Source: Myxococcota bacterium (GTDB lineage Bacteria > Myxococcota_A > UBA796 > UBA2385). Taken from it: 64,000 nucleotides of DNA. Below, piece by piece: positions 27,385 to 60,169 of this stretch. The stretch covers positions 480,001 to 544,000 of the forward strand of contig JBIJDH010000001.1 in assembly GCA_044344255.1 (NCBI GenBank). The letters are read 5' to 3'. The notes under the pieces are model-generated. The model was not told the DNA's origin, did not search any database, and was given only the letters and a program-made list of their open reading frames with translations. Made by a program: the position numbers and the translations under genes. Each line of letters starts with the position of its first letter. Positions within the stretch are counted from its first letter, which is position 1.

Positions 27385-28389
27385 TCAGCCGCGTGAAGCG
27401 GCGATGACCCGGAGGAAGTTCTCGCCGTAACAAGCGAGGATCTCCTCCGGTCTCCATTTGAGGCGCAGCAAGGCCTCGGTGAGCCGGGGCATCTTCTCGG
27501 CGCTGTCGAGGTCGGAGGGGTAGAGCGACCAGCCCTCCCAGTCCGTGCCGATGGCGCAGTGCTCGACGCCGACCTTGTCCTTGATGTGGTGGAGGTGCGC
27601 CGCCACCGCGTCGACGCCGCCCGGCCCGATGAAGGGGGTGACGAAGATGACCCCCACCACGCCGCCGGTGCGGGCCACGGCGCGGAGCTGGTCGTCGTCG
27701 AGGCCCCGTGGGCTCGAATAGACCGCGTTCGCCGAGGTGTGGGAGCAGATCAGGGGCTTGTCGGTGGCGGCGCAGGTCTCGAGGAGGCCGGCGCGGTTGA
27801 CGTGGGCCACGTCAATGAGGATGGCGCGGTGGTTGAGCTCGGCGACGAGATCGCGGCCGAAGGGGCTGAGGCCGACCGTGTGGTCCTGGCCCCAGCCCAC
27901 CATCGGCCGGCAGGCCTCGTTCTTCGAGAAGTGCACGAGGCCCACATAGGCGAGGCCGCGGGCCTGAAAGGCCGGGAGCTCATCGAGCCGCCCGTACAGC
28001 CCGTGCGCCCCCTCGAGGCCGGCGAAGACGGCGATCTTGCCCGCCGCGCGGGCGGCCCGGATCTCCGCCGCGGTGGTGGCGAGGGCCAAGGTGTCCGGAG
28101 AGTCGGCGAGCAGGCCGTGCAGGCGATCGAGGTCGCTCGAGATGGCGCTCGGGCCCGAGGCCCGGCGGAGGGGGTTCGTCACGATGCCGAGCGCGAGACA
28201 TCCGAAATTGCCCTCTTTCAGCCTCGGGATGTCGCAGTGCCCCATCAAGGCCGCGCCCGGCAGGGGGTTGCCGCGGTGTCGCTTGTTCAGGTCCCAGCCT
28301 AGGAAGTAGCGGGTGAGCAGCACGTCGCAGTGCAGATCGACGAGGAGCGAGGCGTCGTGGATCTCGCGCGCCTCTCGGGACAGGATCAT
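27385..28389 (-). CDS. Membrane dipeptidase (peptidase M19)
   Basis: DLHCD, GLEG, IDVAH, SHT, IGTDWEG, GENFLRV. Confidence 0.92.
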   Translation of the reverse strand: MILSREAREIHDASLLVDLHCDVLLTRYFLGWDLNKRHRGNPLPGAALMGHCDIPRLKEGNFGCLALGIVTNPLRRASGPSAISSDLDRLHGLLADSPDTLALATTAAEIRAARAAGKIAVFAGLEGAHGLYGRLDELPAFQARGLAYVGLVHFSKNEACRPMVGWGQDHTVGLSPFGRDLVAELNHRAILIDVAHVNRAGLLETCAATDKPLICSHTSANAVYSSPRGLDDDQLRAVARTGGVVGVIFVTPFIGPGGVDAVAAHLHHIKDKVGVEHCAIGTDWEGWSLYPSDLDSAEKMPRLTEALLRLKWRPEEILACYGENFLRVIAASRG

Positions 28390-29951
28390 CGGGGCGCTCC
28401 GGAGGCGGGTGCGGCGGGGATCGGCGCGTCAGCAGGGGCCCCGGTCGTGAGGGCCTGGACCCGCCGGCGGTCGGTGGGGATGTCGTGGAGCAGCGCCCAG
28501 GCGGGCACCCCGGGCTGCCGCTCGCCGAGCCAGATGCGGGCCGCGTCCCCGTTCGGCGGCGCGAAGCGGGGCTGGAGCCCGCCGTGGCTGCGGGTGGGGT
28601 CCAGGAAGACGAAGCCGTCTCCCCCCTCGAGGGTCGCGTCGCAGGCGAATTCTTCCACGCCGAGCGCCGGCCAGGCCACCCGGCGCGTCCCCGAGCCGGC
28701 GAGGAGCACGACACCCTCTTCGATGCCTCGCTCGGCGAGCAGCGCCTCCAGGCTCCGATCAACACACCAGTACGCGCGCCCGAGGTCGGTGACGATCGGC
28801 CCCGCACCGAGGCCTGCGCCGAGCGTCAGCGCGCCGAGCCCGAAGGCGCCGGCGCTGCGGACCGGGAGGCGGCTGAGCAGCCCATGGAGCCCCGCGGCGA
28901 AACAAGCGGGGAGCACGAGGTACAGCGGATGCCACAGCCGCGCCCCATACGCGAGGCCAGGGCTCCAGTAGAGGGCGTAGCCGCCGACGATCAGCAGGCC
29001 GAGCAGGGCGACCTCGGGGCGCCGGAGCCGGGCCGCGCCGCCGAGCACCAGCAGGCCGACCCCCGGCAGCCCGACCAGCAGGCGATCGAGGCGGGTGACG
29101 CTGTCGAGCGCGATCTGGAGCGCCTTCTCGGGGCTGTGGCCGAAGCTCCCCAGGGTGGCCATGCAGCCGCGATCGGCGCCGAAGCCGAGGCGGTTGCAGC
29201 CGGCGACGCCGGGGGGATCGACCCAGCCGTCGAACCAGGCGTCCATCGGGAAGCGGAGCGGGTCGCCGGTGAGGGCGAAGTTGTCCCAGCCGACGAGGGC
29301 GGTGGCCGCCGCGCAGGGCAGCAGCAGGCCGAGCCCGCCCCGGCGCTCCCGCCACAGCGAGGCGATCAGCAGCGGGCCGCCGACCAGCAGGGCGTCGAAG
29401 GGGCGCGCCAGCACGACATACGCGACGGGGAGCCCGACGGACCAGCCGGTCCGCCCGCGCGCCACGGCGAGGGCGGCGAGGGCGAGGGCGAGCAGCACCG
29501 AGGTGTGGCTCATCCGGCTCGCCGCGAGCACCCAGACCCCGGGGGAGAGGGCCATGAAGGCCGCGGCGAGCCGCCGGGCCGCCGGCTCCACCCCGAGCTC
29601 ACCGGCCAGGGCCGCGGCGAGCCCCGGCAGGAGCACGGCCAACAGCGGGTTGACGAGCGAGGCGAGGCCGAGGCGCTCCCCCACCGCGAGCAGCAGCGGC
29701 CAGCCGAAGGGGAAGGGTGAGTAGGAGGCCGGGGCCGAGACCCAGAAGGGGTAGAGCAGGCGGGAAGGGTCGTCGCCGGCCGGCCCCACGCGCTCGCCGG
29801 CCGCGAAGAGCCGCGCCTGGAGCGTGTAGGAGACCTCGTCGGTCACGTGGGGGAGGCCGTCCAGGGGCCCGAGCGCCACCGCCGTCGCGAGGAGGCCGAG
29901 CAGCAGACCCCAGCCCGCGAGCTCCCCCCGTGAGGGGCCCTCGCCGCTCAC
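28386..29951 (-). CDS. Polytopic membrane protein, GT-C (ArnT/PMT-like) glycosyltransferase
   Basis: DE motif after first TM (HVTDEVSYTLQARLF), many TM segments, soluble C-terminus; 4-nt overlaps on both sides. Confidence 0.65.
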   Translation of the reverse strand: MSGEGPSRGELAGWGLLLGLLATAVALGPLDGLPHVTDEVSYTLQARLFAAGERVGPAGDDPSRLLYPFWVSAPASYSPFPFGWPLLLAVGERLGLASLVNPLLAVLLPGLAAALAGELGVEPAARRLAAAFMALSPGVWVLAASRMSHTSVLLALALAALAVARGRTGWSVGLPVAYVVLARPFDALLVGGPLLIASLWRERRGGLGLLLPCAAATALVGWDNFALTGDPLRFPMDAWFDGWVDPPGVAGCNRLGFGADRGCMATLGSFGHSPEKALQIALDSVTRLDRLLVGLPGVGLLVLGGAARLRRPEVALLGLLIVGGYALYWSPGLAYGARLWHPLYLVLPACFAAGLHGLLSRLPVRSAGAFGLGALTLGAGLGAGPIVTDLGRAYWCVDRSLEALLAERGIEEGVVLLAGSGTRRVAWPALGVEEFACDATLEGGDGFVFLDPTRSHGGLQPRFAPPNGDAARIWLGERQPGVPAWALLHDIPTDRRRVQALTTGAPADAPIPAAPASGAPR

Positions 29952-32089
29952 GCCCGGCCCGGGTCAGGCGACCGCACAGGGCCTGGCACAGGGCCGAGCA
30001 CACAGCCGAGCATCGAGCGGCCGTCGTGGTTTCGGGGGAGGGTGGGCCGCTGAAGGTCTCCTACGGGCACGACGCGCGGGAACCAGCTCCACAGCTCGTT
30101 CCAAGCGGGGTCGCGGAGCGGCCGCAGGGGATCGCTCGTCGCCAGCGAGGAGAGCGAGCCGGCCCAGGGTCGCAGGGCCTCGGTGAGCGCGGCGGCGGAG
30201 GGCACCCGGTAGAGGTTCGCCATCCGGGGGAGGGCTGAGGGGGTCAGCAGCTCCAGCGGGAGCGTGGTGACGGCCCAGCCGCTCGGCGCGCCGCCCGCCT
30301 CCCCCGCGGCCTCGCGCAGCTGTCCGCGCGCGCGGGCGAGGCCCATCCGGCGCCGCCACTCGGGGCCGAGGCCGGGGTCGCGGCGGCCGAGGGGGAGGGT
30401 CCGGGAGAGCTCGTCGAGGGCTTGGGCGAGCGGGTCGAGCAGCGCGCCCGGATCTCCGACCACGAAGATCGCCGCGGGCGCCATGCAGCCGCGGCTGTCG
30501 AAGCGGCACAGGTCGAGGGCCAGCGCCCGGGCGAGCCGCGGGCGGGGGTCGACGAGGGCGACGCTGAAGCGGTGCCCGAAGAGCGCGTGGCGGGCCCCCG
30601 GCGTGGCCACGCGGATGGCGGCCATCGTCTCGTCCCCGCCAAAGGCGACCACGGCGTCGGGGCTCCCGAGGTCTCGGTCGAGGCTGAGCTCGACCGGCAG
30701 GCCCTCCGCGACGAAGGCGCGGGCGACGGCGGCGCAGAAGGCGGGGTCCCGCGCAGGCGCCTTGAGGCGGACCCGGATGCCCGCAGCGGCGTAGAGGGCC
30801 ACCCACTCGAGGACAGCGGTGAAGACGCCGTGCGCGGCCACCAGCGTGATCTCGGCCGGCCGGGCGCCTGGCACCGCGAGGCTGGCCTCGAGGCCCTCGA
30901 CGGTGATGGCGGAGGCGGCGAGGGCGAGACAAGCCTGCGCCATCTCGGGCGAGAGGCCCTGGGCCCAGGGGGTGGGATCGGCGCGCCCGAGGGCCGCGAT
31001 GGCCCGGAGCGCGGCGCCGACCCGCTTGTGGTCCCCCCGCTGGAGGGTGGGCGTCACGGCGAGGGCGAAGGGGTCGAGGAGGTCGTCTCGGTCGAGCGAG
31101 GTCTCCACGATCGGGAAGGCCAGGGCGACCTCCCGTCGGAGCTGCAGCTCCTCGACGGTGAGCGAGCAGCCGCGCGGCTCGTCACCCTCGAGGCGGCCGT
31201 GCAAGACCACGGAGCCGTCCGGCAAGAGCTCGCCGAGGTCTCGCGTCTCGATGGCGAGGGCGGTGTCGGCGTTAGCGAGGTCGTAGAAGCGGAGGAGGCC
31301 CACCGCGGCGTCCTCTCCGGTCCAGGGGTCCACCGCCCGCACCCGCATCCAAGGCGGCGGGAAGAAGGGCCCGCCGAGCTCGGGGGCCCAGAGCTGGGAG
31401 CAGAGCTCGGTCATCCCGTACTCGCCCACGAGGCGCACACCGGGGAAGATCGCGCGCAGGCGGTCGGCGAGCTCGCCCTCTCCCACCGTCCGCCGCCGCC
31501 CCTTGAAGCCGCCGGTGACCATCAGGATCGAGCCCGCGGGCAAGGGGCAGGCCTCGGAGACGCCCTCGATCAGCTCATCCCAGGCGAAGGCGGTGCCCGG
31601 CACGAACTGGGGGGCCACCGCCCCGCGCAGGGCCGCCCAGGCCCCCGCCTTGTCGAGGCCGCGCTCGGGATCGAAGCAGCGGCGGAGCCGAGGCGCGAAG
31701 TCGGCGCACATATGGCCGAGCGAGGCGTCCGAGGCGTGAGAGACGAGGGAGACACCCTCCTGCGGGACCTCCCCCAACACCGCCGCCGCGGCGAGGCGAG
31801 CGCCGAGATCGTAGAGCTCGGTGTCCCGCAGCCGCACGACCCCGCGGGCCCCGGTGGTGCCGCTGGTGCGAAAGGTGACCGTGGCGCCGGACGCCGGGAA
31901 GCTCGTGAGCGACAGGTCGCGGAAGAGCGCCACCGGGACGGCGGGGATGTCCTGCCAGCGGGTCGGCTGGGCTCCATCGGCGTAAGCCGCGTAGTCCCGG
32001 TTGTGGGCCCGCTGGTGCTGGAAGAGCGCGAGGGCGGTGGCCTCAAAATCTCCGCCCTCGAGGATGAATCGTCGGAGGGTGGCCTTCAT
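29948..32089 (-). CDS. Fusion of LuxE-like acyl-protein synthetase and LuxC-like acyl-CoA reductase
   Basis: N-half FRTSGTTG, TGGFKG, EYGMTEL, DLAN, RGCSL; C-half AFGGDET, FGHRFS, FDSRGCMAP, HDGR; GGGAG SD. Confidence 0.85.
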   Translation of the reverse strand: MKATLRRFILEGGDFEATALALFQHQRAHNRDYAAYADGAQPTRWQDIPAVPVALFRDLSLTSFPASGATVTFRTSGTTGARGVVRLRDTELYDLGARLAAAAVLGEVPQEGVSLVSHASDASLGHMCADFAPRLRRCFDPERGLDKAGAWAALRGAVAPQFVPGTAFAWDELIEGVSEACPLPAGSILMVTGGFKGRRRTVGEGELADRLRAIFPGVRLVGEYGMTELCSQLWAPELGGPFFPPPWMRVRAVDPWTGEDAAVGLLRFYDLANADTALAIETRDLGELLPDGSVVLHGRLEGDEPRGCSLTVEELQLRREVALAFPIVETSLDRDDLLDPFALAVTPTLQRGDHKRVGAALRAIAALGRADPTPWAQGLSPEMAQACLALAASAITVEGLEASLAVPGARPAEITLVAAHGVFTAVLEWVALYAAAGIRVRLKAPARDPAFCAAVARAFVAEGLPVELSLDRDLGSPDAVVAFGGDETMAAIRVATPGARHALFGHRFSVALVDPRPRLARALALDLCRFDSRGCMAPAAIFVVGDPGALLDPLAQALDELSRTLPLGRRDPGLGPEWRRRMGLARARGQLREAAGEAGGAPSGWAVTTLPLELLTPSALPRMANLYRVPSAAALTEALRPWAGSLSSLATSDPLRPLRDPAWNELWSWFPRVVPVGDLQRPTLPRNHDGRSMLGCVLGPVPGPVRSPDPGRA

Positions 32090-32147
32090 GACACTCCCAC
32101 AGTTCAGGCCCGGTAACCCGGGGCCCCCCGGGGGTCCGCCGGAACGA

Positions 32148-33410
32148 TCAGCCCAGGTCGACGAGGGAGAGGTCGAGCGCGCGCAGGAAGCCCTGGAGCT
32201 GCCGCCTGGTGATGGTGAGCGGGGGCACCACGGCCAGCACCTCGCCCGTGGCGGCCTCTCCGGCCGGCAGGAGCAGGTAGCCCCGCTGGAGCAGCGCCCG
32301 GCTGAGCAGGAAGGCGCGCTCATGGACAACACCGAGCATCAGCCCCACGCCTCGCACGGTGAGGCCGCGCCGCTCGAGCTCGGCCCGCAGCCAGGCCCCT
32401 TGGGCCTCCACTGTGGGCACGACGGCCTCGAGGACGCCCATGCAGGCGAGGGCCATCGCGCAGCCCACCGGGTTGCCGAGGAAGGTCTGGGTGTGGAGCG
32501 CCGGGCCCCGCGAGGCCCCCCAGGCGTCCATCACCTCGGCGGTGCCGACGCAGGCCGAGATCGGGAAGCCGCCGGCCATGCCCTTGCCGAGGCAGAGGAG
32601 ATCGGGCCGCACGCCCTCGGCCTGGAAGCGGAACCAGGCCCCCGTGCGGCCGAAGCCCGTGTAGACCTCGTCGAAGATCACGACAGCGCCTGCATCGTGG
32701 GCCGCGTCGATCAGCGAGGCGAGCCAACCTGCAGGGGGGAGCCGCATCCCTCCCCTGCCCTGCACGGGCTCGACCAGCACGGCGCCGACGTCGGAGAGGT
32801 CAGGCAAGGCTCCGCCGTAGGGGGCCCAGCGCACGTGCGGGCCCATCTGCCCTTCGAAGGGCGCCCGCATGCTGGCGCGGCCATAGTCGGTCTCGCTCAG
32901 CGCCCCGTAGGAGAGCCCGTGGTAGCCGCCCTCGAAGGCGAGCACCCGGTCGCGGCCGGTGGCCATCCGGGCGGTCTTGAGCGCGGCCTCGACGGCGTCG
33001 GAGCCCGAAGAGCCGAGGATGCTCCGCGCGAGCCCCGTCTTCTCGGCGAGGGCGTCGAGGAGCTCGATCCGACGCGGATCGGGGAAGGCATCCCCCATCG
33101 CGTGGAGCAGCGTGCCGGCCTGTCGCCGGGCGGCGCGGACCACGGCGGGGTGGCTGTGCCCCACCGAGGCGACGCCGAAGCCGGCGGTGAGGTCTACAAA
33201 TACGTTGCCATCGACGTCCTCGACGTTCGCGCCGCGCGACCGGGCCCAGACGATGGGATCATCGGAGGCGGCGCCGAGCAGCGCCGCGCGGCGGGCGCGC
33301 CGGGCGGTGATGGCCGGGCACTCGCGCTGGGCGAGGCGGTCGATCCACGCCTGGGAGCGGGGGCCAGGGATGGCGGTCTGGAGGGCGGGGTGCGACGTTC
33401 CGAAGGGCAT
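32148..33410 (-). CDS. Class III (omega-type) PLP aminotransferase
   Basis: DVDGNVFVDL, SGSDAVEAALK, GGYHG, EPVQGRGG, DEVYTGFGRTG, GKGMAGG. Confidence 0.95.
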   Translation of the reverse strand: MPFGTSHPALQTAIPGPRSQAWIDRLAQRECPAITARRARRAALLGAASDDPIVWARSRGANVEDVDGNVFVDLTAGFGVASVGHSHPAVVRAARRQAGTLLHAMGDAFPDPRRIELLDALAEKTGLARSILGSSGSDAVEAALKTARMATGRDRVLAFEGGYHGLSYGALSETDYGRASMRAPFEGQMGPHVRWAPYGGALPDLSDVGAVLVEPVQGRGGMRLPPAGWLASLIDAAHDAGAVVIFDEVYTGFGRTGAWFRFQAEGVRPDLLCLGKGMAGGFPISACVGTAEVMDAWGASRGPALHTQTFLGNPVGCAMALACMGVLEAVVPTVEAQGAWLRAELERRGLTVRGVGLMLGVVHERAFLLSRALLQRGYLLLPAGEAATGEVLAVVPPLTITRRQLQGFLRALDLSLVDLG

Positions 33411-35292: not shown

Positions 35293-35369
35293 TTGACCCC
35301 AGAGGGGCGAAACCATACAGCGTTATTGTTGTACAGCGTTCTTGTTGTACAGCAACTCTGCTGTGCAAC
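35293..35369 (+). promoter_or_regulatory. Sigma-70-like promoter overlapped by three 16-bp direct repeats (putative operator)
   Basis: TTGACC(35293)-N17-TACAGC(35316); TACAGCGTTATTGTTG / TACAGCGTTCTTGTTG / TACAGCAACTCTGCTG; AT-rich relative to flanks. Confidence 0.6.
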
Positions 35370-35404
35370 GCGGTCGACGGATCGACAGCGCTCTGGGTGT
35401 CACG

Positions 35405-36310
35405 ATGCACAACGTGGTGGGACCGCCGGTTCGAGGGGATGACTTCTTCGATCGTGAGTCCGAGCAACGGCAGATGTGGCGCTCGCTGGAGCGCCACCAC
35501 GTCCTCCTCTTGGCGCCCCGGCGGGTCGGTAAGACCTCGCTGATGTACCGCCTCGCGGAGCAAGCCCCCGCGAATGGCTTTCGAGCGATCTACGAGAGCG
35601 CGGTCAAGTGTGAGACCGAGCTCGCGCTCGTGAGTCAGCTCTACAAGGCCGTGGCCCTCCAGGACGAGTCCGTCGCTGCGGCCCTCACCGGCGGGCGACT
35701 CGGCCGGCTCGTCGAGCGGGTGAAGGGGTTGAAGGGGCTCGGCGTGGAGCTCGTGCTCAAAGAGATGGCCCCGGAGGACTGGGTCCCCCTCGGTGAGGAG
35801 CTCATCCTGGCCCTTCGCGGCAGCGGCCAGCGGTGGCTCCTGCTCCTGGACGAGCTCCCCGTCTTCGTCGTCCGCCTCTTGGAGCAGGAGAACGGGCGCG
35901 CCCGGGTCCGTCGCCTCCTCGACTGGATGCGTGACGCTCGACAGGGGACGGTCGCGGGCCCGGACTCGTTTCGGTGGCTGCTCGCAGGCTCCATCGGCCT
36001 CGACGCCGTCACTCAGCGGCTCGGCCTCGGCGCTTCGATCAACGATCTCCTCGTCCTGCGGCTCGGCCCGCCCCGGGACGCGCAGGCCCGCGACCTGCTC
36101 AGCGCCTGCGCCCGCGATCCGGAGGGGGCCAGCCGAACGGTCCTGGAGCAGGCCCTCGGCCGACACATCCAGGACCCGGCCACCCGCTCGGGCGACCTCG
36201 CCTGGCTCCTCTCCGTGCTCGAGAACGACGGCTACATCGTGCCCGTCGACGGGAGGCACCGCTTCCGCTCTCCGCTGCTTCAGTCCTACTGGCGCGGGCG
36301 GGCCCCATGA
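35405..36310 (+). CDS. P-loop ATPase (STAND/archaeal-ATPase-like) with short C-terminal wHTH-like region
   Basis: FFDRE pre-Walker motif, Walker A APRRVGKT, Walker B LLLLDE, LLAGSIGL. Confidence 0.8.
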   Translation: MHNVVGPPVRGDDFFDRESEQRQMWRSLERHHVLLLAPRRVGKTSLMYRLAEQAPANGFRAIYESAVKCETELALVSQLYKAVALQDESVAAALTGGRLGRLVERVKGLKGLGVELVLKEMAPEDWVPLGEELILALRGSGQRWLLLLDELPVFVVRLLEQENGRARVRRLLDWMRDARQGTVAGPDSFRWLLAGSIGLDAVTQRLGLGASINDLLVLRLGPPRDAQARDLLSACARDPEGASRTVLEQALGRHIQDPATRSGDLAWLLSVLENDGYIVPVDGRHRFRSPLLQSYWRGRAP

Positions 36311-38058
36311 CCGACCGACCGGGCCCCACGCTCACCGTCTACAACCCCGATCTGCTCTCCGACGCCGACCTGAAGCGGCAATTCGTCGCCCGGCTCGGCC
36401 TCCTCGAACGACTGATAGGCGACCTTCGCGGCGAGGGGGCCTCGCAGCAGCACCACTTGATCCTGGGCCAGCGCGGGATGGGCAAGACCACCCTCCTCCG
36501 CCGCCTCCGCGGGGCCATCCAGGAGGACGAGGCCCTCCGTCAACTCTGGCTCCCGCTCAGCTTCCCCGAAGAACAATACAATGTCTCCCGACTGAGCGAC
36601 CTCTGGGTCAATTGCCTCGACGCCCTCGGCGACGCCCTCGAGCGCAACGGTGACAAGGCGGGCGCCGCAGCGATCGACGCCCTCGTAGACAGCCTCCCGG
36701 AGTCGGAGGAGGCCCGCGGCCGCGCCGCGCTGGACGGCCTCGTCTCCTGGTCGGAGGCGCAGCGCGGGCTGGTGCTGATGATCGACAACGTCGACCTCCT
36801 GCTCAGCCGGCTGGATGCTCGACAGTGGGCCCTCCGGGAGGTGATGAGCGAGCACCGCCACCTCGTCTGGATCGTGGCGAGCGCGGAGCCCCTCGAGTCC
36901 ACCGCCGAATATGGGTCCGCCTTCTACGACTTCTTCGCCATACACGAGCTCCGCGGCCTCGACTACGAGGAGTCGCGGCAGGTGGTGCTCCGACTGGCGC
37001 AGGTCCACAGCACCCCCCAGGTCAGTCGGGTGCTCGACGAGTCGCCCGGACGCTTTCGCGCCCTCCATGTGCTCACCGGGGGCAATCCCCGCACCCTCGT
37101 GCTGCTCTATCAGGTCTTCGCTCACGACGACGCCAGCAGCGTTCATGTCGATCTGGAGCGGCTCCTCGACATGTGCACGCCCCTGTACAAGGCGCGCTTC
37201 GAGTCCCTCTCTGCCCAGGCCCAGCAGCTCACCGACGCCCTCGCCATCGGCTGGGACCCGATGACCGCCGCCGAGGTCGCGACCGCCACCCGCCTGGAGA
37301 TCAACCTCGTCTCCGCCCAGCTCAATCGCCTCGTCACGATGGGGGTGGTGGAGAAGGTGCCCTTGCCGGCCGGGTCGAAGAGCGGCTTTCAGATCGGGGA
37401 GCGCTTCTTCAACATCTGGTACCTGATGCGGGCCAGCCGCCGGGTGCGGCGTCGACTGGAGTGGCTGGTGCGCTTCCTGGAGGTCTATTACGGGCCGGAG
37501 GGCCTCAAGTCACGCGCGGAGCAGCTGCTCGAGCTGGAGGGAGGCCCCAGGCAGGCCGAGCTCGCCTTCGCCTACTCCCGCGCGGTGTCGGAGCCCGGCC
37601 TGTCACGGGCCCTCGACAACTACGCGGTCGACTGGCTGATGAAGGACGAGACAGGGCTTCGGACTCGACTCGGCGAGCTCTTCGATCTGGAGGGCGAGGA
37701 CCGCGCGGTCGGGACGCTGGCGGAACGGAGGGTGATATGGGCCGAATCCTCCCTCTCCCGCCGCTTCATCTCCGAAGGAGGAGAAGATTTTCATTCGCGG
37801 TGCTGGGCGGACATCGTCCTGTTCTTTCGGGAGGCTGTCCGCACGGGTCATGCCCCCGAGGCCCTCCAGCTCCTCGACGAGACCGGCCAGGGCGAGCGCT
37901 GGCGGCCCCTTCGGGAGGCCGTGGCCGCTGTCGCCGCCGGAGATCCCGAGCTGCTCCTCGCCGTGGCCCCGGAGGTCCGGGTGCCGGCGAGCGCGATCCT
38001 CGACGAGCTCTGGCCCTTGGAGGAGCGGCCGGCCCCGAAGAAGAGGCGGCGGCCCTGA
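36307..38058 (+). CDS. STAND-like P-loop ATPase with winged-helix domain
   Basis: Walker A GQRGMGKT, Walker B VLMIDN, TGGNPR (GxP), wHTH MTAAEVA...VSAQLNRLVTMGVVEK; ATGA overlap. Confidence 0.82.
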   Translation: MTDRPGPTLTVYNPDLLSDADLKRQFVARLGLLERLIGDLRGEGASQQHHLILGQRGMGKTTLLRRLRGAIQEDEALRQLWLPLSFPEEQYNVSRLSDLWVNCLDALGDALERNGDKAGAAAIDALVDSLPESEEARGRAALDGLVSWSEAQRGLVLMIDNVDLLLSRLDARQWALREVMSEHRHLVWIVASAEPLESTAEYGSAFYDFFAIHELRGLDYEESRQVVLRLAQVHSTPQVSRVLDESPGRFRALHVLTGGNPRTLVLLYQVFAHDDASSVHVDLERLLDMCTPLYKARFESLSAQAQQLTDALAIGWDPMTAAEVATATRLEINLVSAQLNRLVTMGVVEKVPLPAGSKSGFQIGERFFNIWYLMRASRRVRRRLEWLVRFLEVYYGPEGLKSRAEQLLELEGGPRQAELAFAYSRAVSEPGLSRALDNYAVDWLMKDETGLRTRLGELFDLEGEDRAVGTLAERRVIWAESSLSRRFISEGGEDFHSRCWADIVLFFREAVRTGHAPEALQLLDETGQGERWRPLREAVAAVAAGDPELLLAVAPEVRVPASAILDELWPLEERPAPKKRRRP

Positions 38059-48865: not shown

Positions 48866-49942
48866 ATGAACGCTGACGACCGAAGCCCACCCGGCCCTGC
48901 GAAGCCGCTCGCTCCAGACTTGCGCCGCGCGGTCCGAGAGCCCCGCCCCGCCGACGAGCGAGGGCTAAACAAGTCGCAGAAGTTCGTGCGCCTGCTCGAA
49001 GAGATGCAGGGCCCGGGCGGGGTCACCGCCGGCGAGGTCATGGCCCGCTTTGACCTCGATGACCGCACGCTGCGCCGCTACCTCGCCGATCTGCGGGAGC
49101 TCGGGCTCCCCGTACAAGCCGACGGCCGCAGCCACACCCGCCGCCTCTGGGTAGACGCCAGCTACCGCCGCACCGGCGTGCAGCTCTCTTTGCTCGAGCT
49201 CGTCTCCCTCCGCTTCGGGCGCGCCCTCTTCGACTTCCTCGACGGCACGGGCTTCGCGGCCGACATGGACGACGCCCTCGAGACCCTCTCCACCCTCGCG
49301 GTCGGCCCCGGCGCCGAGCACGCCCACGACCTCGACCGCAAATTCCTCGCGGTCCCCGAGCACCGGAAAGACCACAGCCGCGATGCGGACCTCCTCGAGG
49401 ACATCCTCACCGCCCTGCTCTATCAAAACCCTGTCCGGGCCCACTACCAGCGCATCGGCGGGCCCACCCGGGCCTACTCCCTCTATCCGTACACCCTCGC
49501 CACCTATCGGCAGGGCCTCTATCTCTTCGCCTTCGACGTGGAGGAGGGGAAGATCAAGACCTTCGCCGTCGATCGGTTCCGTAATTTCGAGCGCACCCGC
49601 GGCGAACACTTCCCCTACCCCGACGACTATGACCCCGCCGCCCTCGTTGCTGACTCCTTCGGCATCATCGGCGGCGCCAAGGAGGAGGTCTGCCTGCGCT
49701 TCAACCGGCGGGTCTCCCCCTACATCCTCGAGCGGGTCTGGCACCCGAGCCAGGCCCTCGAGCCCGAGGCCGACGGCAGCGTGCTCCTCCGCATGCACGT
49801 GGGCGCCTCTCCCGAGCTCGTAGGCTGGGTGATGAGCTTCGGCCCCGACTGTCGTGTACAGAGCCCCCCGAGCCTGGTCGAGCAGATCCGCCGCCTCCAC
49901 CGAGAGGCCGCCGAGGGTGTCGACCCCCTGGAGCGCCGATGA
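48866..49942 (+). CDS. HTH-WYL-WCX transcriptional regulator
   Basis: wHTH DDRTLRRYLADLRELG; WYL core PYTL...LYL...KTFAVDR; WCX WHPSQ...WVMSFG. Confidence 0.93.
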   Translation: MNADDRSPPGPAKPLAPDLRRAVREPRPADERGLNKSQKFVRLLEEMQGPGGVTAGEVMARFDLDDRTLRRYLADLRELGLPVQADGRSHTRRLWVDASYRRTGVQLSLLELVSLRFGRALFDFLDGTGFAADMDDALETLSTLAVGPGAEHAHDLDRKFLAVPEHRKDHSRDADLLEDILTALLYQNPVRAHYQRIGGPTRAYSLYPYTLATYRQGLYLFAFDVEEGKIKTFAVDRFRNFERTRGEHFPYPDDYDPAALVADSFGIIGGAKEEVCLRFNRRVSPYILERVWHPSQALEPEADGSVLLRMHVGASPELVGWVMSFGPDCRVQSPPSLVEQIRRLHREAAEGVDPLERR

Positions 49943-53629: not shown

Positions 53630-56600
53630 ATGCAGTCCATCGCTGGCTATGTCCTCGGAGAGCGTGTCACGGGCGGCGGCTCGTCGGCGCTGTTCCGGGC
53701 CGTCGAAGAGTCCACCTCGGATCGGGTCCTGGTCCGGCTTCTGAAGGCCCCCTACCAGAGCGGGCGCCATCTCGCCCAATTCCGGCGCGACTTCGAGCTC
53801 TCTCGACAGGTCAACACCCCTGGGATCCTGCAGCCGCGCGCCCTCGTCGCCGCGCCGACCGGGCCCGTGCTGGTCTTCGACGATCCCTCCGCTCGGCCGC
53901 TCGGCGCCCTCCTCCGCCCCGTCCCCCACTTCCCGGCCCTCCTCGAGCTCACCATCGCCATCTGCAAGGTGGTCGCCGAGGTTCACGCCGCGGGGGTGGT
54001 CCACAAGCAGCTCGACCCCGACACGATCTTCGTCCAGTCCAACCCAATGGGCCCGCCGCGGATCTGGATCACGGGCTTCGGCGTCGCGAGCCGCCTCCAG
54101 CACCACACCCAGGCGGCGGGCGACCCCGGCCAGCTCGACGGGTGGCTGCCGTACATCTCCCCCGAGCAGACCGGGCGGATGAACCGCTCCATCGACCACC
54201 GGAGCGACCTCTACTCCCTCGGCGTCATCTTCTACGAGCTGCTCACCGGCTCCCTCCCCTTCCAGGCCGACGAGCCGATCGGCTGGGTGCACGCCCACAT
54301 CGCGCGGCGGCCCACCCCGCCCGAGGAGCGACGAGGGGACACTCCGCACGCCCTCGCGCAGCTCGTCCTGAAGCTCCTCGCCAAGAACGCCGATGATCGC
54401 TACCAGTCTACCCGAGGCCTCCTGCGTGACCTCGAGCGGCTGCAGCGTGACCTCCAGCAGACCGGCGGCTTCGGCGCCTTCACCCCCGGCGAGCAGGACG
54501 TCAGCGACCGCTTCATCCTGCCCGAGCAGCTCTTCGGCCGGGAGGCCGAGGTGGCCGAACTGCTCACAGCCTTCGACGGCGTGGCCGCGGGCGGGAAGGC
54601 GGCCATGCTGGTCACCGGCCCCTCGGGCATCGGCAAGACGGCGCTCATCCAGGAGGTGCAGCGCCCGTTGGTCGAGAAGCGCGGCCTCTTCATCTCCGGC
54701 AAGTCCGACCAGTTCCGCCGCGATCTGCCCTACGCCCCGCTGATCGGCGCCATGCGCGAGCTCGTGCGGCAGGTGCTCACGGCGCCTGCGGTCGAGATTG
54801 GGCGCTGGCGTCGCCGGGTGCAGGAGGCGCTGAAGGACAACGCCCGCGTCGTGGTCGACGTCATCCCCGAGGTCGAGTTCCTCGTCGGCGAGACCCAGCC
54901 GGTCGCCGAGCTCCCCGCCGCGGAGTCTCGCACCCGCCTTCAGCGGGCCTTCATCGCCTTCGTGCAGGTCTTCGCTCGGCCAGACCACCCGGTCGTGCTC
55001 TTCCTCGACGACCTGCAGTGGATCGACCCCTCCTCCCTCGACCTCCTGAGCGAGGTGCTGGCGTCGCCGGCCACCGGCGGGCTGTTGCTCCTCGGCGGCA
55101 TCCGCCCCGAGGGCCTCTTGGCCAACGAGCCCCTGCCCGCCGCGATCGACCGCTGGAGGTCGGCGGAGCTGCCGGTGCAGACGATCACGCTCGGCCCCCT
55201 GAGCGCCGCGAGTGTCCTCCACATCGTGCAGGCCACCCTCGATGACGCCGGCCCCAACGTCGAGCCGCTCTCGCGCGTGATCCTGGAGAAGACGGGCGGC
55301 AACCCCTTCTTCGTCGGGCGCTTCCTTCAGGCCCTGCACGCGGACGGGCTCATCCGCTTCGACGAGCAGGTGGGCCGCTGGACCTGGGAGCTCGATCGGA
55401 TCGCCGCCCTCGTCGTCGGGGAGCACGTCGTCGAGCTGATGCACGAGCGCATCGGCCGCCTCTCCGGCCCCACCCGCGCCGCCCTCGAGCTCGGCGCCTG
55501 CATCGGCGCCCGCTTCCCGCTTCCCCTGCTCGCCGAGGTCATGGGGCGGCCCCCCGCCGAGGTGGCGGCGGCCCTCTGGTCGGCGGTGGAGGCCGACCTC
55601 ATCCACCCCGACACCGCCGTGCTCTCCGCCGAGGGCTCCACCGTGGGCTCCACCGTGGGCTCCACCGTGGGCTCCACCGTGGGCTCCACCGTGGGCGGTG
55701 AGGACCTCCCCGTCAGCTTTCGGTTCGCCCACGACCGCATTCAGGAGGCCGCCTACAACCGTGTCCCGCCGACCGAGCGCAGCGCGCTCCATCTGCGCAT
55801 CGGCCGCATCCTCCTCCAGTCCGAGGGGACAGCCGACGAGCAGCTCTTCAGCGTGGTCGACCACCTCAACCAGGCCATCCCCCTCCTCGCGGCCGGGAGC
55901 CCCGACCGCCACCGCCTCGCCGCCCTGAACGCGCGGGCGGGGCAGCGGGCGCGGGCCTCGGGGGCCTACACCCCAGCCCGGGCCTGGTTTGAGACCGGTC
56001 TTGAGCTCCTGGGCGAGGGCGAGGGCGAGCTCGACACTCGCGTCTTGCTCCTGGCCGGCGCCGCCGAGACGGCCGTGCTCACCGCCGACGTCGCCCGCGG
56101 CCTGACCCTCACCGACCAGCTCCTCCAGGTCGCCCGCACGCCGATCGAGCGCGCCCGCGCCCACGAGATCCGCGTCTCCATCCACAACAACCAGATGCGG
56201 ATGAGCGACGCGGTGCAAGAGGTGCTCGTCGTGCTCGACCTCCTCGGCTACCCGGTCGCGCCGCCGGCCGGCCCGGAGGACTTCCCCTTGGGCCTCGCCC
56301 AGGTCCACGCGGGGATGGCCGGCCGCTCCTTCGACGCCCTGGGCGAGCTGCCCGAGCTTGAGGACGGCGCCGCGCTCTCGGCCCTCAACGTCATCGCCCA
56401 CGCCCTGCCGAGCGCCGGCATGGGCGCGCCGCATCTCTTTGCCCCGCTCTTGTTCCGGGGCATCGGGATCTGCCTCACCCAAGGGGTGAGCCCCGCCGCC
56501 CCGACCATCTTCAGCAGCTACGGCACGCTGCTCTCCGCCATCGGAGATCCGGACACCGGCTACGAATTCGCCCGCCTCGCCATGCACCTCTGGCACCGCT

Positions 56601-59600
56601 TCTCCCGCGCCGCGGTGGGCTCGGAGGTCTTCCTCGAGATGGCGACCTTCGTGCAGCACTGGAAGGTGCCCGTGCGCGACAGCGTCACCCTGCTCGCCCG
56701 TGGAGTGGAGGAGAGCCTCCGGGTGGGCAACCTGTCCACCTTTGGCTTCTGCGCGAACCAGCGCTTCGACCACGCCTTCTACGCGGGCGAAAAGCTCCCC
56801 GCCCTCGACGCCACCTACGGGCAGATCCGCCAGTCGCTCATCGACAACAAGCAGGCCCTCGCCCTCATCGGCATGGACCCCTTCGGGCAGGTCGTCTCCT
56901 GCCTCCGCGGCGAGGCGGGAGACCCGCGTCTCCTCGACGGCGGGCGCTTCCAGCTCGACGTCATGCTGCCCGTGCTCATCCAGAACGGCTTCTGGCCAGG
57001 GGTGCTCTTCGCCTCCACCGCCGGCATCATGCTCGCCACGCTCTTCGGGGACGACGACCGGGCCGTCACCATCGCCGACAAAGAAGCGCCGTGGATCCTG
57101 GCGCCGCCCTGCAGCGCGATGTTCCCGCTCGTGCTCCGGCTCTGGTACCGCGCCCTCTCTCAGGTGCGCCGGCTGGCCCACCTGTCGGGAGAGGAGCGCA
57201 CAGCCGCCGAGGCGGAGATCGCCGACACGCGCGGCCGCCTCACGGTCTGGGCAGACCGCGCCCCGATGAACCACGCCCACCGCCGCGCCCTCCTCGAGGC
57301 CGAGATCGCTCGGGCAGCGGGGGACGGGGGCCGGGCGATGGTGCAGTTCGACGAGGCCGTCCGCCTCGCCGGGCAGCACGGCTTCATCCAAGACGAAGCG
57401 TTCGCCGCCGAGCGGGCCGCCGAATTCCATCGCGCCGAAGGGCGGGTCTTGCCGGCCCAGGCCTACGCCGCCGCCGCGCTCCGCCTCTGGCGGGCCTGGG
57501 GCGCCACCGCCAAGGCCGAGGACGTCCACCAGCGCTTCAGCGATCTCCTCTCTACCGAGCCGGTCCACGAGGGCGGCCCCTCCGGCAGCCGGGCGCTCGA
57601 CATCGACACCGTGGTCAAGGCCAGCAGCGCGATCAGCGCCGAGATCGTGCTGGAGCGCCTCCTCGGCCGGGTCATGCAGATCCTGGTCGAGAACGCCGGC
57701 GCCGAGTGGGGCTGCCTCATCCTCACCCGCGGCGACCGCCTGTTCATCCAGGCCCGCAGCAGCGCCGAGGGGGGCAAGGGCTCCGTCCGCATCACCGACA
57801 TCCCCCTCGAAGACCAGACCGAGGTGCCGAGCTCGATCGTCCGCTACGCTTCCCGCACCCAGCAGAGCGTCCTCCTCGGGGACGCCTCGCTCGAGGGTCT
57901 GTTCACGAATGATCCCGCGGTCATCGCCCGACGCGTCCGCTCGGTCGTGGCGCTCCCCCTCGTCCGCCAGGGCAAGCTCATCGCGGTCCTCTACCTGGAG
58001 AACAACCTGACAGCGGAGGCCTTCCCGCCGAGCCGCCTCGAGCTGCTGCGGATGCTGTCGAGCCAGGCCGCCACCAGCATCGAGAACGCGGTGCTCTACA
58101 CGGAGCTCGCCGCCTACTCTTCCGAGCTCGAGGCCAAGAACGAGCGGCTCACCGAGCTCGACCGCATGCGGGACGAGTTCATGGCCAACACGTCCCACGA
58201 GCTCCGAACGCCGCTGCACGGCATCATCGGCATCGCGCAGTCGCTCGCCGACGGCGTGGCCGGGGTGGCGTCGGGGCCCATGCTCACCAACCTCGAGATG
58301 ATCGTCTCAAGCGGGAAGCGGCTCTCCAACCTCGTCAACGACATCCTCGACTTCTCTACCCTCCAGCACCGGCGGATCGAGCTGCGGCCCGCCCCTGTGC
58401 GCGTGCAAGACCTCGTGCGCATCGTGGCCGCCTTGTCCTTGCCGCTCATCGGTGGGAAGCCCGTGCGGCTCGAGGTGGAGCTCTCCGAGGCCCTGCCGCC
58501 GGTGTGGGCCGACGCGGACCGCATCCAGCAGGTCCTCCACAACCTGATCGGCAACGCCATCAAGTTCACCGATCGGGGATCGGTGGTGGTGTCCGCCCGG
58601 ATGGAGCTGAGCGGGGCGGGCAGTGAGCGGCTGAGGCTGTCGGTGCAGGACTCCGGAATCGGCATCAGCCCCGAGGTGCAGTCCCGCATCTTCGAGAGCT
58701 TTGAACAGGCTGACTCCTCGACTTCGCGGGTCTTCGGCGGCACCGGCCTCGGCCTCGCCGTCGCCAAGCAGCTCGTCCTGCTCCACGGCGGCGAGATCGG
58801 CGTCGAGTCGAGCCCCGGGGCGGGCTCCACCTTCTCTTTCACCCTGCCCGTGGCCGAGGGCGCGCAGCTCCTCGTCGAGCGGCGCCCAGCGCCCACACTC
58901 ACACCCACACCCACACTCACCGCAGCCCTCGCCGACGAGGCCGCCCCCACCGACCTCGTGCCGGTGACCGTCGAGCCCACCGGCACCCTTGTGCTCGTCG
59001 TCGACGACGAGCCGGTCAACCTCCAGGTGCTCATCAACCAGCTCGGCCGTCAGGGCTACCGGGTGGTGACGGCGCTCTCCGGCCCGGAGGCCCTCCGCCT
59101 CCTCAACCAGGGCCTCCGCCCCGACATGGTGCTGCTCGACGTGATGATGCCCACGATGTCCGGCTACGAGGTCTGCCGAGCCATCCGGACCCGGCACCCC
59201 GCCAATGAGCTGCCCGTCATCATGCTCACCGCCCGCAACCAGCCGAGCGACGTGGTGGCCGGGCTCGAGGCAGGCGCCAACGACTATGTGGCCAAGCCCT
59301 TCGGCAGCGTCGAGCTCCTGGCCCGGATGCGCACCCACATGCAGGTGGCCCGCGTCAACCAGGCGATCGGCCGCTTCGTGCCCCACGACTTCCTCCGCTT
59401 GCTCGGTCGGGAGTCGATCCTCGAGGTGCGGCTCGGCGACAACGTCGAGCGAGTGATGTCGGTGATGTTCAGCGACATCCGCGCCTTCGGCTCGCTCAGC
59501 GAGGGCATGACCCCCTCGGAGAACTTCGCCTTCATCAACGACTACCTCGGCGCCATGGAGCCCGAGGTGAGCGCCCAGCACGGCTTCATCGACAAGTACA

Positions 59601-60169
59601 TCGGCGACGGCATCATGGCCCTCTTCGACCGCAGCCCCGATGACGCCCTCCAGGCCGGCCTCGGCATGCTGCGGGCGCTCGCCGCCTTCAACACACGCCG
59701 ACAGGCGCAAGGTCGCGCCCCCATCGGCATCGGCGTGGGCATCAACACCGGGCGCCTGATGCTCGGGGCGGTGGGCGGTGTCACGCGGATGGAGAGCACC
59801 GTCGTCAGTGACGCGGTCAACATCGCGGCCCGCGTCGAGACGCTGACGAAGGCCTATGGCGCGCCGCTGTTGATCACGGAGGACACGCTCCACGGACTCT
59901 CCGAGCCCCTGCGCTGGGGCACTCGGCTCCTCGACCGGGTGCTCGTGAAGAGCAAGCGGGAGCCGGTGACGGTCCACGAGGTCTTCGAAGGGGACAGCCC
60001 CTCGGTCCGGGCCGGCAAGGGCGAAACCCGGCCCCTCTTCGAGGCCGGCGTGCGGGCCTTCCACCGTGGGGAGCTCGACCTCGCCCGCGAGATGTTCGAG
60101 CAGTGTGTGGCGCGGGTGCCCGACGACCTCCCCGCGCGGCTGTACCTCGGGCGCTGCAACCCGGACTGA
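53630..60169 (+). CDS. Multidomain signalling protein: degenerate Ser/Thr kinase, AAA ATPase, GAF, His kinase, receiver, class III nucleotide cyclase
   Basis: YISPEQTGR, GPSGIGKT, FLDDLQW, GGNPFF, LYLENN, SHELRTPL, NLIGNAIKF, GGTGLGL, VVDD/LLDVMMP, FSDIR, DKYIGD, DAVNIAAR. Confidence 0.95.
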   Translation: MQSIAGYVLGERVTGGGSSALFRAVEESTSDRVLVRLLKAPYQSGRHLAQFRRDFELSRQVNTPGILQPRALVAAPTGPVLVFDDPSARPLGALLRPVPHFPALLELTIAICKVVAEVHAAGVVHKQLDPDTIFVQSNPMGPPRIWITGFGVASRLQHHTQAAGDPGQLDGWLPYISPEQTGRMNRSIDHRSDLYSLGVIFYELLTGSLPFQADEPIGWVHAHIARRPTPPEERRGDTPHALAQLVLKLLAKNADDRYQSTRGLLRDLERLQRDLQQTGGFGAFTPGEQDVSDRFILPEQLFGREAEVAELLTAFDGVAAGGKAAMLVTGPSGIGKTALIQEVQRPLVEKRGLFISGKSDQFRRDLPYAPLIGAMRELVRQVLTAPAVEIGRWRRRVQEALKDNARVVVDVIPEVEFLVGETQPVAELPAAESRTRLQRAFIAFVQVFARPDHPVVLFLDDLQWIDPSSLDLLSEVLASPATGGLLLLGGIRPEGLLANEPLPAAIDRWRSAELPVQTITLGPLSAASVLHIVQATLDDAGPNVEPLSRVILEKTGGNPFFVGRFLQALHADGLIRFDEQVGRWTWELDRIAALVVGEHVVELMHERIGRLSGPTRAALELGACIGARFPLPLLAEVMGRPPAEVAAALWSAVEADLIHPDTAVLSAEGSTVGSTVGSTVGSTVGSTVGGEDLPVSFRFAHDRIQEAAYNRVPPTERSALHLRIGRILLQSEGTADEQLFSVVDHLNQAIPLLAAGSPDRHRLAALNARAGQRARASGAYTPARAWFETGLELLGEGEGELDTRVLLLAGAAETAVLTADVARGLTLTDQLLQVARTPIERARAHEIRVSIHNNQMRMSDAVQEVLVVLDLLGYPVAPPAGPEDFPLGLAQVHAGMAGRSFDALGELPELEDGAALSALNVIAHALPSAGMGAPHLFAPLLFRGIGICLTQGVSPAAPTIFSSYGTLLSAIGDPDTGYEFARLAMHLWHRFSRAAVGSEVFLEMATFVQHWKVPVRDSVTLLARGVEESLRVGNLSTFGFCANQRFDHAFYAGEKLPALDATYGQIRQSLIDNKQALALIGMDPFGQVVSCLRGEAGDPRLLDGGRFQLDVMLPVLIQNGFWPGVLFASTAGIMLATLFGDDDRAVTIADKEAPWILAPPCSAMFPLVLRLWYRALSQVRRLAHLSGEERTAAEAEIADTRGRLTVWADRAPMNHAHRRALLEAEIARAAGDGGRAMVQFDEAVRLAGQHGFIQDEAFAAERAAEFHRAEGRVLPAQAYAAAALRLWRAWGATAKAEDVHQRFSDLLSTEPVHEGGPSGSRALDIDTVVKASSAISAEIVLERLLGRVMQILVENAGAEWGCLILTRGDRLFIQARSSAEGGKGSVRITDIPLEDQTEVPSSIVRYASRTQQSVLLGDASLEGLFTNDPAVIARRVRSVVALPLVRQGKLIAVLYLENNLTAEAFPPSRLELLRMLSSQAATSIENAVLYTELAAYSSELEAKNERLTELDRMRDEFMANTSHELRTPLHGIIGIAQSLADGVAGVASGPMLTNLEMIVSSGKRLSNLVNDILDFSTLQHRRIELRPAPVRVQDLVRIVAALSLPLIGGKPVRLEVELSEALPPVWADADRIQQVLHNLIGNAIKFTDRGSVVVSARMELSGAGSERLRLSVQDSGIGISPEVQSRIFESFEQADSSTSRVFGGTGLGLAVAKQLVLLHGGEIGVESSPGAGSTFSFTLPVAEGAQLLVERRPAPTLTPTPTLTAALADEAAPTDLVPVTVEPTGTLVLVVDDEPVNLQVLINQLGRQGYRVVTALSGPEALRLLNQGLRPDMVLLDVMMPTMSGYEVCRAIRTRHPANELPVIMLTARNQPSDVVAGLEAGANDYVAKPFGSVELLARMRTHMQVARVNQAIGRFVPHDFLRLLGRESILEVRLGDNVERVMSVMFSDIRAFGSLSEGMTPSENFAFINDYLGAMEPEVSAQHGFIDKYIGDGIMALFDRSPDDALQAGLGMLRALAAFNTRRQAQGRAPIGIGVGINTGRLMLGAVGGVTRMESTVVSDAVNIAARVETLTKAYGAPLLITEDTLHGLSEPLRWGTRLLDRVLVKSKREPVTVHEVFEGDSPSVRAGKGETRPLFEAGVRAFHRGELDLAREMFEQCVARVPDDLPARLYLGRCNPD
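55634..55693. repeat. Perfect 12-bp tandem repeat x5 (GGCTCCACCGTG) encoding (GSTV)5
   Basis: Read directly from sequence. Confidence 0.95.

Follow-up and report, generated by a model that had tools for sequence, protein, structure and literature searches.

A Class III Aminotransferase and a LuxE-LuxC Fusion as the Probable Core of a Nitrile-Free Route to preQ1 in Myxococcota

The window analysed here is a stretch of 64,000 nucleotides from a Myxococcota bacterium (assembly GCA_044344255.1, contig JBIJDH010000001.1, positions 480,001 to 544,000 of the forward strand). It carries a gene for a class III aminotransferase followed by a gene for a fused LuxE-LuxC protein. The aminotransferase together with LuxE and LuxC, either fused or separate, is referred to below as the trio. 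The genomic evidence on its substrate indicates that the trio probably converts 7-carboxy-7-deazaguanine (CDG) through 7-formyl-7-deazaguanine to 7-aminomethyl-7-deazaguanine (preQ1), independently of QueC and QueF. It is also likely that this is a second de novo route to preQ1 in bacteria, which reaches other phyla and is the commoner of the two in Myxococcota, with 97 of the 121 genomes sampled, and that luciferase-free LuxE/LuxC pairs serve for the most part to reduce heterocyclic acids of the cofactor and nucleobase kind.

In two reviews (PMC5699537, PMC13740343), available in part, QueC and QueF are the route to queuosine, and a genome without them is taken to rely on salvage. The former treats the pathway as solved, with these two enzymes as the sole link between CDG and preQ1, and regards genomes that lack them as scavengers. 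If the proposal is true, many genomes lacking QueC and QueF belong to producers, which changes the predicted suppliers of queuine precursors in soils and waters. The widespread luciferase-free LuxE/LuxC proteins, now annotated "acyl-CoA reductase, bioluminescence", would gain their first primary-metabolic role, and the trio would provide a natural cascade from heteroaryl acids to amines. A literature search made without most subscription journals and supplements found no paper that connects LuxE/LuxC or an aminotransferase with preQ1, and the available part of PMC13329287 has no relevant mention.

Structure and active sites of the trio proteins

The source genome has a size of 8.2 Mb and is 95% complete, and homologues are labelled Myxococcota. 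The aminotransferase gene (33410-32148, minus strand) codes for 420 residues and matches PF00202 with an E-value of 3.9e-78. A gap of 58 nucleotides separates it from the fusion gene (32089-29948, minus strand), which codes for 713 residues. The longest open reading frame (ORF) of the fusion has a GTG start and 794 residues and extends into the aminotransferase gene. The likely start is the ATG at 32089, as judged from a Shine-Dalgarno-like GGGAG (32094..32098, minus strand) four bases 5' of it and from the homologues, which start at the same position. The fusion consists of a LuxE-like acyl-protein synthetase domain (31136..32089, residues 1-318) and a LuxC-like acyl-thioester reductase domain (29948..31054, residues about 346-700), both on the minus strand.

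When a profile of 32 fusion homologues was compared with the PDB, the only matches were the LuxE chain 7xc6_E (E 2.4e-20) and the LuxC chain 7xc6_A (E 4.6e-12); the latter is also the top Foldseek match of the fusion model. The LuxC domain matches PF05893 with 61.9 bits (cut-off 21), and a PF04443 search of the source genome gave no match. The fusion is matched by 93 proteins of 392-1248 residues, mostly over the full length, and many relatives have two separate genes. RfbN of Vibrio cholerae is another LuxC/LuxE fusion. Residues K196, R299 and C308 align with K238, R355 and C364 of LuxE, and C535 aligns with the catalytic Cys of LuxC; all four are invariant in 32/32 fusion homologues. The corresponding residues are given as functional in the lux proteins in the accessible text of PMC9157457. 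Residues 306-345, the C-terminal arm, have low confidence in the model, as expected for a swinging arm and linker.

In the lux LuxC, a C-terminal element closes the long hydrophobic cleft for the myristoyl group (PMC9157457, available in part). All 32 fusion homologues end 5-24 residues past D689, before this 29-residue cleft and oligomerisation element. The score of the fusion against the curated lux equivalog NF052251 is only 20.8 bits, with a cut-off of 750.

The AlphaFold2 model of the aminotransferase (pLDDT 93.8) has the fold of ArgD and GabT with TM values of 0.8-0.89. From its lysine for pyridoxal phosphate (PLP), its Asp-Glu motif and this fold, the protein is assigned to the class III PLP aminotransferases of fold type I. 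Invariant in 35/35 orthologues are K276 (the PLP lysine), D247-E248, G106-D107, T307-x-T309 and Arg219. The last residue occupies the position of a Glu in ArgD, which we take to be the "Glu switch". None of the 35 orthologues has Arg at position 166 or 393, where ArgD has Arg residues that presumably bind the substrate carboxylate. The protein also scores far under every NCBIfam equivalog cut-off (best score 266, cut-off 457). The Glu switch, the two Arg and an equivalog score above cut-off, which characterise ArgD, GabT and ornithine aminotransferase, are thus all lacking. The protein represents a distinct orthologue group, for which the function of a preQ1-forming 7-formyl-7-deazaguanine aminotransferase is proposed. 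Its substrate would have no distal carboxylate, and an Asp residue may read the guanine-like ring. Taken together, the active-site features of the aminotransferase and of the LuxC domain argue against amino-acid and long-acyl substrates.

The proposed reaction path would start from CDG made by QueD and QueE, encoded elsewhere in the genome. At the LuxE domain, the CDG carboxylate and ATP would form CDG-AMP with the participation of K196 and R299. Cys308 would then bind the acyl group as a thioester, and the flexible arm would pass this group to Cys535 of the LuxC domain, from which NAD(P)H would free 7-formyl-7-deazaguanine. This aldehyde is known as a released product of QueF variants (PMC13740343, in the part available). 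The PLP aminotransferase would turn it into preQ1, which Tgt, QueA and QueG would convert to queuosine in tRNA. The three reaction types follow from the established chemistry of the families, while we infer the substrate, product, amino donor and cofactor from the genomic context. The acid-to-aldehyde-to-amine sequence that the original prediction had suggested for these genes agrees with the invariant catalytic residues and with the conserved linkage described below.

Queuosine genes and distribution of the trio

The source genome codes for a QueD over the cut-off, a QueE, a QueA beside tgt, a second tgt and a QueG. Its QueE has 273 bits with the best model (cut-off 300) and intact QueE-type motifs. 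Genome searches found no QueC and no QueF, nor a transporter of the YhhQ/QPTR (PF02592) or QueT (PF06177) family. Without a transporter and with QueD and QueE kept, the genome does not match the preQ0/preQ1 salvage type. The gap that is left, CDG to preQ1, is the conversion of an aryl acid to an aryl-methylamine, and this is the type of conversion that the chemistry of the trio provides. Both Tgt proteins contain FDEC and GG(L/V)SVGE, the equivalents of Cys158/Val233. This pattern belongs to the preQ1-inserting Tgt according to the accessible part of PMC3660597. The two Tgt genes (G000:C36:162011-163114 and C36:503315-504436; L166 and L167) are 48% identical and both over the cut-off. By a hand count in which a few may be split genes, about 57/97 trio genomes have at least two Tgt matches, compared with 1/23 QueC genomes.

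The linkage was counted by tblastn and hidden Markov models (HMM), since the gene caller misses GC-rich membrane genes. Three sets were used: 80 genome loci at the order level, of which 48 extend 5.5 kb or more downstream and are termed long; 40 phylum loci chosen by luxE; and 80 metagenomic loci chosen by the aminotransferase. Among 61 close genomes, 58 have the LuxE/LuxC genes and 58 the aminotransferase, and both occur in all 35 of good quality. In 65/67 order-level loci with enough flank, no more than 3 kb separates luxE from the aminotransferase gene, and the aminotransferase is directly upstream of luxE in 29/40 phylum loci. The nearest Atlas clusters, which serve as leads only, occur most often in Myxococcota, Acidobacteriota and Verrucomicrobiota, and the phage collection has no LuxE-like match. 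Two genomes have second luxE/luxC copies without an aminotransferase, close to a gene that carries the CxxxCxxC motif of radical-SAM proteins (L122, G083:C170; L123, G135:C9), and their LuxE proteins form a long branch of their own in the LuxE tree. SUF-like iron-sulphur assembly genes, recognised by sequence reading, come after the trio in one clade (L133, L137, L138, L147, L148, L153, L155 and L157); QueE and QueG need iron-sulphur clusters.

The distribution was surveyed in 121 Myxococcota genomes, each at least 90% complete. LuxE/LuxC is present in 97 of them. In a profile search, exactly these 97 proved to have the aminotransferase orthologue, full-length with E<1e-140 in 94 and partial in three (G028, G123, G156). 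A single-query search had missed orthologues, with only 61/121 genomes positive, and the profile search was used instead. The other 24 genomes have no orthologue; their best matches (at least 1.4e-99) are at the level of the source genome's own paralogue. The distance between luxE and the aminotransferase gene is 3 kb or less in 78/97 trio genomes, and in 19/97 the two are unlinked. QueC, by contrast, is found in 23/121 genomes: none of the 97 trio genomes and 23 of the 24 others. Strong QueF matches occur in 19/121 genomes, each of them also QueC-bearing and none with the trio. The positive controls of both searches matched in E. coli and B. subtilis. Five weaker QueF matches come from trio genomes. 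The match in G041 is a QueF-like T-fold protein without the catalytic Cys (L259, G041:C4:287751-287972); of the four others, all weak, the three that were read are FolE-type, and the fourth is in G118. Tgt is present in 121/121 genomes, and QueD in 90/97 trio and 22/23 QueC genomes. The only genome with neither route, G063, has no QueD or QueE match, a pattern as expected of a scavenger.

A tree of rpoB (FastTree) was made for 60/121 genomes, namely 40/97 trio genomes, 19/23 QueC genomes and G063; the tree omits three QueC genomes without an rpoB match, a single congener, and further trio genomes from families that had a member in the tree. The tree requires at least six changes between the trio and QueC states, with the deep forks open. 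In 18/80 metagenomic loci, the gene immediately upstream of the aminotransferase, in the same orientation, is queE. Four of these 18 queE genes were confirmed as QueE-family by NCBIfam, two of them over the cut-off. Four of the 18 loci also contain luxE/luxC, and in one (L205) queE, the aminotransferase and a LuxE-LuxC fusion form a single run. Several of the 18 have a common gene order and probably come from related organisms. In the Myxococcota genome G108, queE is found 3 kb upstream of the trio.

Several results weigh against the preQ1 proposal or limit it. The exclusion of QueC and QueF was examined within Myxococcota. Its Fisher p of 7e-24 ignores kinship and overstates the case, since related genomes are not independent. 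The independent pairs on the starred branches of the rpoB tree all point in the same direction (5/5; two-sided p 0.0625); this is suggestive and not significant, and a sign test with five pairs cannot reach significance. A single-query search found QueE in only 66/97 trio genomes and 17/23 QueC genomes, a similar miss rate in both groups. HMM searches found a QueE-type gene in 5/5 tested genomes in which it had been missed: four trio genomes, and a QueC control in which the gene abuts queC. For the other 27 trio genomes the result is that of the single query. One family (f4: G024, G030, G036, G041, G046, G051, G056) has the trio, QueE and Tgt, with QueD in 0/7. A search with PF01242 gave 0/5 even at E 0.1, and the family possibly has a QueD replacement of a new kind. 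The neighbours of queE in this family, and those of unlinked aminotransferases, were not informative. In the fetched stretch, luxE/luxC is absent from 14/18 of the queE-aminotransferase loci and from 49/80 of all metagenomic aminotransferase loci. In Myxococcota, queE is near the trio in just 1/40 phylum loci and 0/80 order-level loci. No preQ1 riboswitch was found in the 32 trio or aminotransferase sources scanned. Finally, the only FolE of the source genome is short; it is over the Pfam cut-off and has 107 bits against the 162 of NCBIfam. A FolE2 motif has no match in this genome, where no FolE2 family search was made. Short divergent FolE-like proteins that keep the Cys/His motifs were noted in the source genome (G000:C59:260254-260787, L267) and at L261 and L152, and a FolE-like gene is located 4-8 kb from the trio in G108 and G097.

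Alternative substrates and neighbouring genes

The original prediction named an alkyl amine or amino-lipid, or an envelope modification. In this reading a fatty acid would be converted to a fatty aldehyde and further to the alkylamine or amino-lipid, which the GT-C enzyme would use for envelope modification. The nearest solved relatives of the fusion are indeed the lux fatty acid reductase subunits, and the fatty amines of tambjamine pathways arise in an analogous manner, as given in the available part of bioRxiv 10.1101/2025.08.11.669332. In addition, the GT-C gene overlaps the fusion gene by 4 nucleotides here and is linked to it in a few relatives. However, that linkage is rare, the long-acyl cleft element of LuxC is gone in 32/32 homologues, and a fatty substrate leaves both the QueC/QueF exclusion and the queE adjacency unexplained. 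The distribution and the gene neighbours point instead to queuosine biosynthesis, and the fatty substrate has to be regarded as very improbable. The amine-catabolic direction, also raised at first, is unlikely because LuxE spends ATP on activating the acid (established chemistry; PMC9157457, as far as available).

Salvage of thiamine could likewise use an acid reductase and an aminotransferase, which would convert a pyrimidine carboxylic acid breakdown product to the aminomethyl-pyrimidine, or act on a thiazole acid. Related LuxE/LuxC pairs of Azospirillum, Pantoea and Lactiplantibacillus lie behind thiamine pyrophosphate (TPP) riboswitches together with a short-chain dehydrogenase/reductase (SDR) and transporters, and carboxylate products of thiamine are known orphans (PMC11223231, in the part at hand). 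Four such operons were located (L348:5674-11800, L349:5706-9343, L350:1390-6321 and L351:5932-11768), three of them behind a TPP riboswitch; they plausibly form an acid-to-alcohol thiamine salvage module. These SDR-type pairs are on plasmids and are nested in the LuxE tree of the trio, beside the queE-linked ones (support 90). The close relatives behind TPP riboswitches suggest small heterocyclic acids as substrates of this LuxE subfamily. However, the TPP loci carry an SDR and not an aminotransferase, and no TPP riboswitch was found in the 32 trio or aminotransferase sources, compared with 3/4 of the SDR-type loci. A ThiC-like gene is present in the source genome, whereas a TenA motif, which is a weak test, has no match there. 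One organism tested did not salvage the pyrimidine acid, according to the available text of PMC11223231, and thiamine salvage would not predict the exclusion of QueC and QueF. This explanation of the trio has very little probability.

Another small acid is an unlikely but somewhat more reasonable candidate. It could belong to a non-orthologous route to ornithine, lysine, gamma-aminobutyrate or beta-alanine, with a dipeptidase deprotecting the product in the manner of ArgB-C-D-E, or it could be a metabolite that tracks the loss of QueC. The best NCBIfam and PDB matches of the aminotransferase are acetylornithine aminotransferases, the distribution is single-copy and housekeeping-like, and within the order the trio often has a dipeptidase gene and a murein-peptide-ligase-like gene nearby. 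However, the Arg that we take to bind the distal carboxylate in ArgD and GabT is gone in 35/35 orthologues, the scores lie far under the equivalog cut-offs, and the dipeptidase and ligase genes are missing from 40/40 phylum loci. Judged on synteny and on the aminotransferase active site, with no survey of amino-acid pathway genes, the ArgBCDE/LysW-like version with a deprotecting dipeptidase was rejected: the dipeptidase lacks conservation, and the Arg residues for carboxylate binding are missing.

The two genes downstream of the fusion are on the minus strand as well, and the ORF listing and the window sequence confirm the four co-oriented genes with two 4-nucleotide overlaps that had been described. 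The overlaps are GTGA (29951-29948) between the fusion and membrane protein genes and ATGA (28389-28386) between the latter and the dipeptidase gene. The absence of luxA, luxB and luxD from the window is likewise confirmed, since Pfam scans found no luciferase or LuxD family among its 88 ORFs. Of the earlier gene labels, those of the aminotransferase, LuxE/LuxC and the dipeptidase are supported by profile matches, while GT-C is probable only. The product of 29951-28386 (521 residues, minus strand) is a probable GT-C-fold membrane glycosyltransferase. It has no Pfam match itself and a weak match to STT3A (E 0.013); PMT_2 is matched by 6/35 of its homologues, and D38-E39 after the first hydrophobic segment is invariant. 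The dipeptidase (28389-27385, minus strand, 334 residues) is an M19 membrane-dipeptidase-family metallopeptidase with a PF01244 match of 246 bits (cut-off 26; E 5.3e-73). It contains HxD, EG, H, H and D, which we take to be the M19 metal-ligand motifs.

A synteny survey upheld the linkage of luxE/luxC with the aminotransferase and not that with the membrane protein. The GT-C gene is present in 34/61 relatives, mostly on other contigs or distant, and lies beside the trio in 4/48 long order-level loci, 0/40 phylum loci and 1/80 metagenomic loci. The dipeptidase gene follows luxC in 23/48, 0/40 and 0/80 of the same sets, as an order-level syntenic neighbour, and both genes together occur in 0/48 long loci. 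The 4-nucleotide overlaps do not mark a functional unit, since the two overlapping downstream genes are the non-conserved ones. The conserved unit is the trio, and these two genes are local neighbours. The GT-C gene is a local passenger outside the pathway, and the dipeptidase is probably outside it as well. Neither an envelope modification nor a role for these two genes finds support.

A gene presumably of murein-peptide-ligase type, named from its N-terminal motif, is located upstream of the trio in 39/80 order-level loci (L044, L048, L084 and 36 others), with the M19 dipeptidase downstream. In the source genome it is on another contig than the trio (G000:C36:416538-417992). Possibly the two genes recycle peptidoglycan as a pair and belong to an ancient block of synteny. 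A peptidoglycan link of the trio itself was considered and rejected as order-level synteny, since the ligase-like gene is absent phylum-wide (0/40 loci) and unlinked here.

Elsewhere in the window, two overlapping AAA/STAND-type ATPase genes with slightly lower GC content (35342-38058) are possibly an inserted defence-type pair. A WYL-WCX regulator at 48866-49939 is followed by genes without a Pfam match. At 53630-60166 a hybrid sensor of 2179 residues combines Ser/Thr kinase, AAA, GAF, His kinase, receiver and adenylate/guanylate cyclase domains.

Comparison with known systems

The trio works like the lux LuxC-LuxE pair followed by a tambjamine-type transamination, and it does not qualify as a lux fatty acid reductase by the LuxC C-terminal element, the operon genes or the equivalog score. 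The lux pair of Photobacterium phosphoreum (PDB 7XC6; PMC9157457) has the same folds, the Lys/Arg adenylation pair, the acyl-carrying Cys motif RGCSL and the reductase catalytic Cys. In contrast, the protein described here is a single polypeptide of about 17% identity, with an aminotransferase as partner and no luxA, luxB or luxD. Its reductase domain of about 350 residues ends before the C-terminal cleft element, while the lux LuxC has 477 residues. The lux pair is a fatty acid reductase, whereas the probable substrate of the fusion is a deazapurine acid.

The tambjamine modules TamA/TamH and TabE/TabA (bioRxiv 10.1101/2025.08.11.669332, available in part) also activate a carboxylate, reduce the thioester to an aldehyde and perform a class III transamination. 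They act on C12 substrates bound to an acyl carrier protein in natural-product clusters, while the trio has no such carrier, is single-copy and is near-universal in many families. The OarX-type LuxE/LuxC/SDR operons with TPP riboswitches share the LuxE subfamily (29-33% identity) and the acid-to-aldehyde front end. They differ in having an SDR and transporters in place of the aminotransferase, thiamine regulation and a full-length LuxC of about 480 residues. Their function is putative; the OarX paper (PMC11223231) examined its strain for SDR function only. ArgD (7NN1) and GabT share the class III PLP fold, 30-36% identity and the PLP lysine with the aminotransferase, in which Arg replaces the Glu switch, both substrate-binding Arg are gone and Gly-Asp 106-107 is invariant.

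The closest functional counterpart is the pair of QueC (preQ0 synthase) and QueF (preQ0 reductase), as presented in the available parts of PMC5699537 and PMC13740343. Both systems would start from CDG and end with preQ1, both would use ATP and NAD(P)H, and both occupy the same slot in the genome. The proteins are not homologous, and the intermediates differ: QueC and QueF proceed through an amide and a nitrile, while the trio would proceed through a thioester and an aldehyde without preQ0, taking its nitrogen from an amino donor by way of PLP.

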